Of a stretch of 64,000 nucleotides of DNA, positions 63,003-63,485 are shown piece by piece. Source of the stretch: an uncultured Acidobacteriota bacterium (GTDB lineage: Bacteria; Acidobacteriota; Vicinamibacteria; Marinacidobacterales; SMYC01); assembly GCA_963815675.1 (NCBI GenBank), contig CAWFHP010000009.1, forward strand, positions 248,235 to 312,234, written 5' to 3'. Below the pieces are notes generated by a model, which was not told where the DNA came from, searched no databases, and saw only the letters and a list, made by a program, of their open reading frames with translations. The position numbers and the translations under genes are program-made. Each line of letters begins with the position of its first letter. Position 1 is the stretch's first letter.

Positions 63003-63485
63003 CTACTGGCAGCTCCCACCCAGGCACATTTTTTTGCAGCCTTTGCCACACGGCGTTCCATCTGAAGCACCGGTGCAATTCCCGACACAGGTCTGGGCGG
63101 AGGCCGCGGTGGGGGCGATGATGGACGTCACGGCTGGCAGAAGAAGAGCGAGGCCGAACGCCCTTACGAGCTCGCGCCGGGAACGCGTCCCGACGTCGTT
63201 CGGAGGCGCGACACGTTCCTCCAGGAGCCGAGCTCTCCCGAGTCGGCGTAACGCGAACCAGACGACGTCCTCGGAAACGGGTGAGCCGAGCTCATCGGCA
63301 AGAAGCTCGGTGATGCGAGCGACGTCGGTTTTCCCGTCGCTGTGCCGCCAGACGAAAGCCGCTATGCGATTCAGACAGTGGGCCCGGTAGCTCTCGAGAT
63401 CGTAGACCAGGACCTCGTCGGGCAACTCCTGAATCAAGAGGCCTTCATCACGCGCGATCGGCGGAGCGGCCGACGGGCGGCTCAT
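63003..63485 (-). CDS. PqqD-like RiPP recognition element (RRE) protein with hydrophobic segment and Cys-rich C-terminal tail
   Basis: LLIQELPDEVLVYDLESYRAHCLNRIAAFVWRHSDGKTDVARITELLADELGSPVSEDVVWFALRRLGRARLL is PqqD-like. It is followed by LALLLPAVTSIIAPTAASAQTCVGNCTGASDGTPCGKGCKKMCLGGSCQ in the same frame. The start is chosen at MSRPSAAPP. Confidence 0.55.
   Translation of the reverse strand: MSRPSAAPPIARDEGLLIQELPDEVLVYDLESYRAHCLNRIAAFVWRHSDGKTDVARITELLADELGSPVSEDVVWFALRRLGRARLLEERVAPPNDVGTRSRRELVRAFGLALLLPAVTSIIAPTAASAQTCVGNCTGASDGTPCGKGCKKMCLGGSCQ

Follow-up and report, generated by a model that had tools for sequence, protein, structure and literature searches.

What does a gene encode when a cysteine-rich tail follows a PqqD-like RRE domain in the same reading frame, and does the tail belong to the domain at all? 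The question is raised by a locus at the end of a 64,000-nucleotide stretch of DNA from an uncultured Acidobacteriota bacterium (the window). The original prediction offered two answers: an RRE covalently linked to a peptide-like or metal-binding module, or a separate small precursor gene fused onto the RRE gene by an indel.

The fusion gene and its family

The interval 63003-63215, which had drawn attention to the locus, covers residues 99-168 of a single minus-strand open reading frame (ORF, 63509..63003) of 168 amino acids with a TAG stop at 63005-63003. The ORF consists of a PqqD/RRE domain, a basic/hydrophobic segment and a six-Cys tail with low GC3. Neither a stop codon nor a frameshift lies between these parts, which confirms that tail and domain share one frame. 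The six cysteines of the tail are as described originally, while its length is 28 rather than 27 residues. The frame through a 7-nt homopolymer at 63029-63035 is confirmed by homologs sharing the C-terminus, and re-sequencing is unnecessary for that question. The gene and its parts are as follows.

63003..63509, minus strand: whole fusion gene, 168 amino acids plus stop; a single ORF with homologs of the same architecture
63216..63461, minus strand: PqqD/RRE domain (Pfam PqqD), about residues 17-98; predicted fold of a three-stranded sheet plus three helices
63183..63215, minus strand: variable linker, residues 99-109; mean column entropy 3.19 bits versus 1.72 bits in the RRE domain
63096..63182, minus strand: RR signal-like segment, residues 110-138; the most conserved part of the protein, mean entropy 1.58 bits
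63006..63095, minus strand: predicted released peptide QTCVGNCTGASDGTPCGKGCKKMCLGGSCQ, residues 139-168, six Cys; hypervariable across the family, low GC3

The tail had been noted for AT-rich codons in a genome put at 66% GC. Window GC is 64.2%, and the codon bias of the tail is genuine and moderate in size. Its GC3 of 0.59, compared with 0.72 for residues 1-100 and 0.82 for residues 101-139, falls at the 2.6th percentile of 29-codon windows from four neighbouring genes (0.80 +/- 0.085). Low GC3 in the tail is a family-wide property, with values below those of the N-terminal part in 60 of 89 family genes (Wilcoxon p = 3.6e-5) and in 25 of the 27 high-GC loci.

A search for other PqqD proteins with Cys-rich extensions, as proposed in the original prediction, showed that the architecture is widespread: 98 close homologs share it, it recurs at 244 places in species-representative genomes, chiefly of Blastocatellia/Pyrinomonadaceae, and clustering at 50% identity (E<=1e-30) yields 2,156 clusters. 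Hosts among the species-representative genomes are overwhelmingly Acidobacteriota and include two Chloracidobacterium MAGs. Each locus carries one to four copies of the fusion gene. In one locus (L006), tandem copies are 97-99% identical over the RRE domain and 91-94% identical over the signal segment, but their tails share only 24-45% identity; the means over 20 paralog pairs are 66%, 60% and 28%, respectively. The fusion gene behaves as a constant N-terminal part joined to a variable product, and the generic RiPP precursor pattern is present: conserved leader, hypervariable core, tandem copies and linked enzymes. In some homologs a larger domain stands at the C-terminus, for example Peptidase_S74.

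The suggestion of an indel fusion did not hold. Hundreds of species carry the fusion in independently made assemblies, on which ground an assembly or indel artefact was rejected, and no credible stand-alone RR-Cys gene was found. An HMM search of 86 loci detected no stand-alone RR-hydrophobic segment outside fused genes, and a profile search of 5.8 billion proteins gave just seven short proteins. Several of them can be recognised as fragments: NCBI marks two as partial, and others begin inside the linker or the RRE domain. For one short protein (P0254), a shadow ORF has been called at the expected site of the RRE domain, while another (P0251) is overlapped by 4 nt by a 112-amino-acid ORF and has a degraded tail.

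Recognition domain, signal-like segment and tail

The Pfam PqqD model (PF05402) matches residues 32-83 with 27.9 bits (gathering cut-off, 23.4 bits) and is present in every listed homolog but two. Among NCBIfam models, the fusion protein matches only ScmD and PqqD, both far below their cut-offs. AlphaFold2 predicts a winged-helix-like RRE fold composed of a three-stranded sheet and three helices (pLDDT 86-89). Compared with known structures, this predicted fold matches TbiB1 and TfuB1 best, both of them lasso B1 proteins; RREs from other RiPP systems come next. Two acidic residues of the domain, E32 and D37, are invariant. Known RREs are either proteins in their own right or parts of tailoring enzymes, and the precursor to which they bind is a separate molecule.

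Structurally, the RR segment is laid out as S-R-R-E-L-V-R, a hydrophobic stretch, P125, VTSIIA, P133 and A136-x-A138, and the family follows the pattern SRRELV(R/K)..G....P.V.SI.AP.A.A. The twin arginines (residues 111-112) are invariant in 341/341 sequences. They are directly preceded by S/T/N in 96% of the family and followed by L/V/M/A at +2, V/M/I/L at +3 and R/K at +4 (90%). Further along, P125 (98%), S/T129 (97%), P133 (98%), A136 (58%) and A138 (85%) are conserved, so that, counted back from the C-terminal end, positions -1 and -3 hold small residues and position -6 holds a Pro. Hydropathy peaks at about 2.2-2.3 over 15 residues, and the distance from RR to the first cysteine (Cys1) is held at 28-31 residues across the family.

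These features, namely an S/T-R-R-x-F-L-K motif, a moderately hydrophobic region and an AxA site, correspond to those of a Tat signal. Sub-threshold matches to Tat models occurred in all seven segments tested, six of them to TIGR02811, at E values of 3.6e-4 to 0.17 that fall far short of its cut-off, and the seventh to TIGR01409 only; the best TIGR01409 scores were 14.2 and 13.1 bits, under the cut-off of 16.7. The segment of the present protein matched only TIGR02811, at a sub-threshold E of 0.17. Unlike in Tat signals, the RR motif is not N-terminal: it occupies residues 111-112, and a folded domain of about 110 amino acids precedes it. On sequence grounds, residues 110-138 thus resemble a Tat signal ending in AxA, and export itself is a prediction.

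The segment had originally been described as a hydrophobic helix. AlphaFold2 retains a short helix at residues 111-118 and continues with a beta-strand at residues 127-131 (VTSII). In two AlphaFold2 models, the strand lies between two prolines (residues 127-131 here, 122-126 in P0012) with pLDDT of about 75-82. Going by these models, residues 110-138 may dock on the RRE domain as a beta-strand, in the manner of leader peptides, which RREs bind as an additional strand beside beta3. In a mean-field DCA of 336 gap-filtered sequences, 4 of the top 24 long-range pairs join beta3 to residues 125-135; these couplings are weak and their joint residue tables are not clean, and we treat them as only suggestive and place no weight on them.

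The tail, CVGNCTGASDGTPCGKGCKKMCLGGSCQ, is 28 residues long and follows the framework C-x3-C-x8-C-x3-C-x3-C-x4-C. With the order C-C-C-C-C-C, no adjacent CC and no Pfam match even at E<=10, it lacks the knottin framework. AlphaFold2 depicts it with small beta elements (pLDDT 85-91), and a PDB sequence search with the tail gave nothing useful. Across the family, tails are hypervariable in sequence, length and Cys spacing, with more than 15 Cys frameworks and 4 to 14 cysteines; no CxxC or CxxH-type motif is conserved among them. An even number of cysteines occurs in 314 of 325 tails (binomial p about 3e-78) and six occur in 180; this parity points to disulfides. An ICK-like framework (C-C-CC-C-C) occurs in 45/168 and 47/141 of relatives' tails (27-33%). 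One homolog (P0096) passes the Pfam Toxin_29 threshold (30.2 versus 25), and several weak conotoxin matches were found in the family. The residue preceding Cys1 is S/T in 95% of aligned sequences (Ser about 63%, Thr 32%; Thr in the present protein), and position -4 is often Gln or Glu. A C-terminal Ser is present in only 8/141 tails. The predicted free peptide (QTCV...SCQ) has a computed mass of about 2.9 kDa, or 2887.13 Da (monoisotopic) with three disulfides and 2870.10 Da if its N-terminal Gln cyclises.

Gene neighbourhood

The fusion gene is accompanied by three genes on the same strand.

63448..64000, minus strand: 3' part of an HprK-related P-loop kinase gene, truncated by the window end; its final 22 codons extend over the beginning of the fusion gene
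61899..62999, minus strand: NTP_transf_5 nucleotidyltransferase gene (Pfam PF14907, E 2.6e-28), starting 3 nt past the fusion stop
60587..61902, minus strand: fourth operon gene, lineage-specific, with the Cys motif CATCQDNCC; its start overlaps the NTP_transf_5 stop (ATGA)

The conserved cassette order is HprK-like P-loop kinase, fusion gene (1-4 copies) and NTP_transf_5 nucleotidyltransferase. Within 3 kb of the fusion in 61 well-flanked loci, NTP_transf_5 was found in 51, the HprK-like gene in 45 and both in 41; a recognisable kinase and/or nucleotidyltransferase is missing from about 16-33% of such loci. The same-strand order is dominant, being exact in 27 of 64 loci and in more when duplications are included, and the gaps are small or overlapping.

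The kinase fragment matches TIGR04352 (HprK_rel_A) below threshold (E 5.8e-12, 45 bits), and its full-length orthologs reach 62-64 bits where the cut-off is 200. TIGR04352 is the sole NCBIfam match of the cassette kinase, which by this measure is only distantly related to that family. The window kinase, 89% identical to its ortholog in locus L001, carries the P-loop GRSFSGKTT, which is kept in 50 of 58 family neighbours, and has CAG where the homologous stop codon would be. The nucleotidyltransferase holds an active-site-like motif, YGDIDL. PDB sequence searches with the nucleotidyltransferase and the kinase returned nothing useful. The fourth gene is conserved only in close relatives, and in this assembly a frameshift interrupts it between about 61614 and 61540; its match to a 341-amino-acid protein of L001 (75% identity) is split over two frames. 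It gave just a weak FliB-like match (NF038110, E 0.0085).

The annotated conserved neighbour clusters of 86 loci comprise the kinase, the nucleotidyltransferase, C25 peptidase, TPR and FecR-like proteins. Many Blastocatellia loci are surrounded by Wzy_C, glycosyltransferase, TPR and PorU-like Peptidase_C25 genes, with Wzy_C listed in the gene tables of L004 and L005. No lasso cyclase (Asn-synthase-like) or B2 protease was present in the Pfam gene tables of six related loci (L001-L006), in the annotated conserved neighbour clusters examined in the 86 loci, in the ten largest nearby window ORFs or, by Pfam, in the following operon ORFs. Neither DUF692, the MNIO enzyme of bufferin clusters, nor its DUF2063 partner is listed in the tables of the six loci, and PADLOC gave no defence-system match. 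An ABC/C39-type exporter was not recognised among the conserved neighbours examined, which fits a general export route.

Possible functions and related systems

We consider it probable, with moderate confidence, that the ORF encodes a RiPP-like precursor with its own RRE, whose tail would be exported, cleaved at the AxA site and folded into a three-disulfide mini-protein. Residues ~17-98 would act as a peptide-binding PqqD/RRE domain that stays in the cytoplasm, and residues 110-138 could have a double role as a twin-arginine-type export signal and as a beta-strand lying on this domain. The cis-RRE may recruit the HprK-like kinase and the NTP_transf_5 enzyme in the cytoplasm. By analogy with PsmK and PsmN of pseudomycoidin, the kinase could phosphorylate a conserved Ser/Thr, after which the nucleotidyltransferase could elaborate the modified residue; candidate sites are S129 within the docked strand and the S/T directly before Cys1. 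Residues 139-168 would be translocated and then cut after A136-x-A138 by signal peptidase, and oxidation of the released six-Cys peptide would yield the mini-protein, probably an antimicrobial or toxin-like peptide, or a surface peptide. What the analysis shows, and what this reading builds on together with the signal-like features, is the architecture and its conservation, the RRE fold, variable tails behind a constant N-terminal part, the even Cys parity and the gene linkage. Pseudomycoidin and the bufferins provide precedents, respectively, for the enzyme set and for Cys-containing RiPP precursors that bear a signal peptide. Some observations sit awkwardly with this reading. A signal-like segment placed internally, behind a folded domain, is atypical for Tat or Sec, a Pro is invariant in its middle, and AlphaFold2 gives a docked strand, not a membrane helix. 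The TIGR01409 scores under the cut-off, the weak DCA couplings, the missing conservation of a C-terminal Ser, the distance of the kinase from TIGR04352 and the loci in which no kinase or nucleotidyltransferase is recognisable also count against it.

A bolder proposal, which we hold tentatively and regard as rather doubtful, is that these proteins represent a new RiPP-like class in which the RRE lies within the precursor itself and serves as an export checkpoint. The cis-RRE would hold the precursor's twin-arginine signal as a beta-strand and present this strand with S/T129, or the S/T beside Cys1, to the dedicated kinase/nucleotidyltransferase pair; release for translocation would occur only once the precursor is modified. 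If true, the proposal would describe a genetically encoded, fast-diversifying library of secreted knottin-like peptides in soil Acidobacteria, and it would point to the substrate class of the wider HprK-related kinase/PqqD/nucleotidyltransferase cassettes.

Alternatively, the protein could be an uncleaved type II membrane protein, with the RR segment as signal anchor, the PqqD domain in the cytoplasm and a Cys-rich knob on the outer face of the inner membrane. Such a knob might serve as a sensor, as a surface module that varies, or as the place where the polysaccharide and PorU-like machinery encoded nearby docks. In favour of this are the internal, hydrophobic RR segment, the Wzy_C, glycosyltransferase, TPR and Peptidase_C25 surroundings of many Blastocatellia loci, and the larger C-terminal domains, such as Peptidase_S74, of some homologs. 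However, an uncleaved anchor has no need of conserved small residues at -1/-3 and Pro at -6, the hydrophobic stretch is short (about 15-16 residues) and broken by the 98%-conserved P125, and a conserved leader with a hypervariable core in tandem copies is typical of released peptides. We judge a membrane anchor unlikely. A cytoplasmic tail binding Zn, Fe-S or Cu, with a redox or metal role for PqqD and a purely structural RR segment, is improbable to a marked degree. In its favour are the high Cys density, the docking of the RR segment in the AlphaFold2 models and the invariant E32 and D37, which could pair with R111 and R112. Hypervariable spacing, length and sequence, with more than 15 frameworks of 4 to 14 cysteines, argue against it, as do the lack of conserved CxxC/CxxH-type motifs, an even parity (314/325) expected of disulfides and not of metal sites, and frameworks that look like those of secreted toxins. 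Of the two modules originally considered, the peptide-like one is retained, on a conserved and selected architecture, and the metal-binding one is not; a conserved soluble metal-binding domain is likewise at odds with the hypervariable tail, the export-signal-like segment upstream and the even number of cysteines.

Two further readings concern the nature of the precursor. In a lipoprotein, signal peptidase II would cut directly before Cys1, which would be lipidated, and an A-x-S-C lipobox-like sequence with Ser at -1 is found in roughly 63% of members. The lipobox pattern is not known to admit Thr at -1, the residue present here and in 32% of members; position -4 is often Gln or Glu, and lipidation of Cys1 would leave an odd number of free cysteines, contrary to the parity, making this reading very improbable. 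The lowest probability, close to nil, goes to a lasso-peptide precursor, or an assembly or indel artefact joining a precursor gene to an RRE gene. In its favour, the RRE domain is structurally closest to lasso B1 proteins, some lasso clusters include genes for a kinase and a nucleotidyltransferase, and frameshifts occur elsewhere in the window. This reading is nevertheless already contradicted: cyclase and B2 genes were seen neither in the Pfam gene tables of the six related loci nor in the conserved neighbour clusters examined in 86 loci and the largest nearby window ORFs, the fusion recurs in independent assemblies and hundreds of species, and the short 'stand-alone' matches look like fragments. 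The G1...D8 ring proposed for GNCTGASD also fails, with G and D not conserved even in the closest homologs (counterparts KDCTFASD, GGKGCSGMPD and SNCASHPF). A lasso precursor would have a conserved ring-forming residue 1, a Glu or Asp at position 7-9 and Thr at -2 of the leader; here the residue at -2 of the proposed G1 is Cys, in line with the original remark on the Thr(-2) rule.

Neither full-text literature searches nor Pfam, NCBIfam and PADLOC yielded an account of any RRE that is joined natively to a hypervariable peptide of its own, and no relevant paper on PF14907 or on RRE-precursor fusions was found. The family is large and belongs mostly to hard-to-culture soil Acidobacteria. Its constant N-terminal part precedes thousands of different predicted mini-proteins with three to seven disulfides, which makes it a ready-made collection of stable scaffolds, possibly with antimicrobials among them. 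The system is experimentally simple, as a single chain carries the recognition domain, the strand that it putatively recognises and the product. The three genes could reveal the role of the widespread HprK-like kinase/NTP_transf_5 pair, and the family could show whether an internal twin-arginine segment drives export.

Among known systems, the pseudomycoidin lasso cluster combines an HprK-type kinase, an uncharacterised nucleotidyltransferase and a PqqD-like B1 protein in one RiPP cluster (PMC6993621). In lasso B1 proteins (TbiB1, TfuB1) and in the paeninodin and pseudomycoidin clusters the RRE is stand-alone, whereas here it is fused to a substrate-like peptide. The loci examined here also differ from lasso clusters in having no recognised lasso cyclase, B2 protease or ABC exporter, and their product is a Cys-rich module after a signal-like segment. 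As a C-terminal Ser is not conserved, the paeninodin/pseudomycoidin modification site is not transferable to the fusion family. The HPr-rel-A cassette (TIGRFAMs/NCBIfam) comprises an HprK-related kinase A (TIGR04352), a PqqD-family protein and a nucleotidyltransferase. Its gene trio and order are the same as in the fusion cassette, but the kinases of the latter score 62-64 bits against the cut-off of 200 and its PqqD protein falls below the ScmD/PqqD cut-offs. To our knowledge, a C-terminal extension with an RR signal and a Cys-rich tail is not part of the described HPr-rel-A system.

Bufferins, which are MNIO-modified RiPP metallophores, have precursors with a general-secretion signal peptide in place of a classical leader, conserved cysteines, a periplasmic location and an RRE-type partner (PMC11626156). 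Their Sec signals are N-terminal, their RRE resides on a separate protein (BufC), and their enzymes are of the MNIO/DUF692 type; the annotated conserved neighbours of the fusion are of other kinds. Bufferin cores are conserved, in contrast to the hypervariable tails of the fusion family. Nif11-like and nitrile-hydratase-like leaders share with the fusion family a domain-sized conserved N-terminus, short hypervariable cores and side-by-side paralogs. These leaders are not RRE folds and carry a GG-type motif for C39 ABC exporters, where the fusion family has RR...AxA. Finally, the precursors of conotoxins and spider toxins (inhibitor cystine knot) consist, as in the fusion family, of a conserved signal/pro-region followed by a hypervariable mature peptide with a fixed Cys framework; the fusion family differs in being bacterial and in having an RRE domain as its pro-region.

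A single reading frame joins an RRE to a Cys-rich tail

The PqqD-like RRE, a peptide-binding recognition element, and the Cys-rich tail behind it are encoded in a single open reading frame:

63509..63003, minus strand: fusion ORF, 168 aa, C-terminus ...TAASAQTCVGNCTGASDGTPCGKGCKKMCLGGSCQ followed by the stop

The Pfam PqqD model matches above threshold at residues 32-83, and the tail comprises 28 residues with six Cys. Its GC3 is 0.59, versus 0.72 for residues 1-100 and 0.82 for residues 101-139 of the same gene; in four neighbouring genes, windows of 29 codons have a mean of 0.80 +/- 0.085, placing the tail at the 2.6th percentile. 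The single ORF, the PqqD match, the six-Cys tail and the low GC3 thus confirm the original prediction of an AT-codon-biased, Cys-rich tail fused to the RRE, with small corrections: the tail had been counted as 27 residues, the GC content given as 66% is 64.2% in the window, and the strand is minus. A 7-nt homopolymer lies inside the tail (window 63029-63035); such runs are error-prone in long-read assemblies, and the frame is confirmed by homologs.

A search of 5.8 billion proteins retrieved 98 homologs, nearly all of 155-170 aa and with the same three parts in identical arrangement. Scanning one genome per species, we confirmed 244 fusion-gene places, almost all in Acidobacteriota (Pyrinomonadaceae, Blastocatellia, Chloracidobacterium and a few Vicinamibacteria), with a handful in bins carrying other taxonomic labels. 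Among 1.84 billion cluster representatives, a profile search recovered 2,156 proteins with a limit of E<=1e-30, and 6,016 with one of E<=1e-10. The nearest relative on a long contig encodes a fusion protein 78% identical to that of the window and is syntenic over 3.4 kb at 82% nucleotide identity, its frame likewise uninterrupted. Together, the 98 homologs, the 244 species-level places and this syntenic relative exclude an assembly indel as the origin of the fusion, which had been raised as an alternative. Short proteins of 59-81 aa (P0248-P0254) consist of the RR segment and Cys tail alone, and one of them, on a JGI contig, has a 112-aa ORF directly upstream with a 4-nt overlap. P0248-P0254 are probably frameshift or fragment artefacts and less likely a genuinely split version of the fusion gene.

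A conserved RR segment precedes a hypervariable tail

Across 341 aligned sequences, residues 110-138 are the best-conserved part of the protein, with a mean column entropy of 1.58 bits, followed by the RRE domain (1.72 bits); the linker (3.19 bits) and the non-Cys tail positions (3.09 bits) are similarly variable. The RR pair is present in 100% of sequences, preceded by S/T/N in 96% and followed by R/K at +4 in 90%. Further conserved positions are G119 (87%), P125 (98%), V/I127 (100%), S/T129 (97%), A132 (86%), P133 (98%) and A138 (85%), and S/T stands immediately N-terminal to the first Cys in 95%. The segment reaches a peak hydropathy of 2.2-2.3, and the distance from RR to the first Cys is constant at 28-31 residues. 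At the sequence level, S-R-R-E-L-V-R/K fits the Tat consensus S/T-R-R-x-F-L-K, and the small residues at -1/-3 with Pro at -6 are consistent with a signal peptidase I site. Tat-signal models match all seven tested segments, each below threshold: TIGR02811 in 6/7 (E 3.6e-4 to 0.17) and TIGR01409 in 3/7 (scores up to 14.2 bits; cut-off 16.7).

AlphaFold2 models of the window protein (50 aligned sequences, pLDDT 86) and of the homolog P0012 (127 aligned sequences, pLDDT 89) both adopt a canonical RRE fold; in each, a short helix spans the RR motif and the stretch between the two conserved prolines, VTSII, forms a beta-strand. The predicted cleavage region is of low confidence, and the tail is modelled as a small, confidently folded, beta-rich module. 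Since the conserved segment is modelled as a strand, the predictions suggest that it docks on the RRE domain in the manner of leader peptides; DCA support for this docking is weak. The RRE domain itself carries two nearly invariant Cys, C45 (motif AHCLN, window 63375-63377) and C57 (motif CDG, window 63339-63341). Because residue 57 is Ser in the window protein, neither a structural disulfide nor a metal site is essential here.

Tails carry an even number of Cys in 314 of 325 cases (p about 3e-78), most often 6 (180 tails), then 8 (70), 10 (31) and 12 (18). The commonest frameworks are C-C-C-C-C-C, that of the window protein, and the knottin-like C-C-CC-C-C (27-33% of tails). The window tail can be assigned to a recognisable sub-type, CV..C....GTPC...C...C.GG.C. 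The C-terminal residue varies across the family tails. One homolog, P0096, has a duplicated ICK-like module that scores above the Pfam Toxin_29 threshold; others give weak conotoxin-type matches. P0066 has 14 Cys within its last 45 residues. P0089 and P0086 both carry a Peptidase_S74 intramolecular-chaperone domain, which in P0089 comes after the Cys module.

Fusion genes also occur in tandem arrays of 2-4 copies:

L006:1412-3772 and 8001-8519: tandem fusion genes
L048:4997-8486: tandem fusion genes
L004:7225-8501: tandem fusion genes

These paralogs combine a constant N-terminal part with a variable tail. At L006, RRE domains are 97-99%, signal segments 91-94% and tails 24-45% identical; over 20 paralog pairs, the means are 66%, 60% and 28%, respectively. 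Tails within the L006 array are unrelated despite almost identical RRE domains. Tail GC3 is lower than that of the N-terminal part in 60/89 family genes (p = 3.6e-5), and in 25/27 within high-GC loci, a family-wide pattern that fits rapid tail turnover.

The fusion gene lies in a kinase-nucleotidyltransferase cassette

In the window, the HprK-like kinase, the fusion gene, NTP_transf_5 and a fourth gene follow one another in tight coupling:

63448-63514, minus strand: kinase 3' end overlapping the fusion gene start; TAA, the stop of the ortholog at the related locus L001, is CAG here
60587-61902, minus strand: fourth operon gene, its ATG overlapping the NTP_transf_5 stop (ATGA)

Because of the TAA-to-CAG replacement, the kinase frame extends 22 codons past the L001 stop position and overlaps the fusion gene start by 62 nt. 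A 3-nt gap separates the fusion gene from NTP_transf_5, and the last tail codons (GGT GGG AGC, within window 63006-63035) provide a Shine-Dalgarno-like GGGAG 12 nt 5' of the NTP_transf_5 start codon. The fourth gene contains a Cys motif, CATCQDNCC, and gives a weak FliB-like lysine-methylase match (E 0.0085) and nothing else. A frameshift splits it between about 61614 and 61540 in this assembly; both pieces match one 341-aa L001 protein at 75% identity. It is confined to close relatives, which have tails rich in Lys.

In a set of 61 non-redundant loci, each with flanks of 2.5 kb or more on either side, NTP_transf_5 lies within 3 kb of the fusion gene in 51 and an HprK-like gene in 45, while 41 have both. 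The prevailing order is kinase, 1-4 fusion copies, nucleotidyltransferase. The P-loop is kept in 50/58 kinases and a YGDIDL-type motif occurs in 37/62 nucleotidyltransferases. The inspected N-termini of both enzymes lack an obvious signal peptide; they are therefore probably cytoplasmic. Blastocatellia loci often add polysaccharide genes, TPR and FecR-like proteins and a secreted PorU-like peptidase:

L024:9706-12801 and 16 other loci: secreted Peptidase_C25 protein, about 1,030 aa (E 3e-81)

This protein is encoded directly 3' of NTP_transf_5 in 17/61 loci, shows sub-threshold likeness to PorU, a sortase of type IX secretion, and could act in maturation or attachment in Blastocatellia. Genes for TPR+CBM, FecR-like and Wzy_C proteins and for glycosyltransferases are also often found nearby. 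Cyclases, B2 proteases, radical SAM enzymes and C39/ABC exporters were not recognised among the conserved neighbours examined.

A putative precursor with its own RRE

What we observe is the fusion architecture, its conservation and its gene linkage; from these we infer, as our favoured model, a precursor with a built-in RRE. The cytoplasmic RRE domain would bind the conserved strand and recruit the kinase and nucleotidyltransferase, which would modify a conserved Ser/Thr. The RR segment would then drive translocation of the C-terminal part, signal peptidase would cleave after AxA, and oxidation of the tail would yield a three-disulfide peptide of predicted mass 2887.13 Da.

Several rival readings compete with this precursor model. 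The RR segment might remain uncleaved as a membrane anchor displaying a Cys-rich knob, the tail might bind metal in the cytoplasm, or the protein might be a lipoprotein. A last rival holds the gene to be a lasso precursor or an artefact.

The enzyme logic of the self-recognising precursor is borrowed by analogy from pseudomycoidin, a lasso peptide that is first phosphorylated and then hexosylated by an HprK-type kinase together with an uncharacterised nucleotidyltransferase, and whose cluster also encodes a PqqD-like B1 (PMC6993621). Bufferins provide a precedent for the use of signal peptides by RiPP precursors (PMC11626156). Curated libraries label the family only 'PqqD family' or hypothetical, and full-text literature searches turned up no account of a native fusion between an RRE and a Cys-rich peptide. 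The individual parts are of known kinds; the novelty lies in combining a cis RRE with a Tat-like internal signal, a hypervariable, disulfide-rich core and a kinase-nucleotidyltransferase pair.
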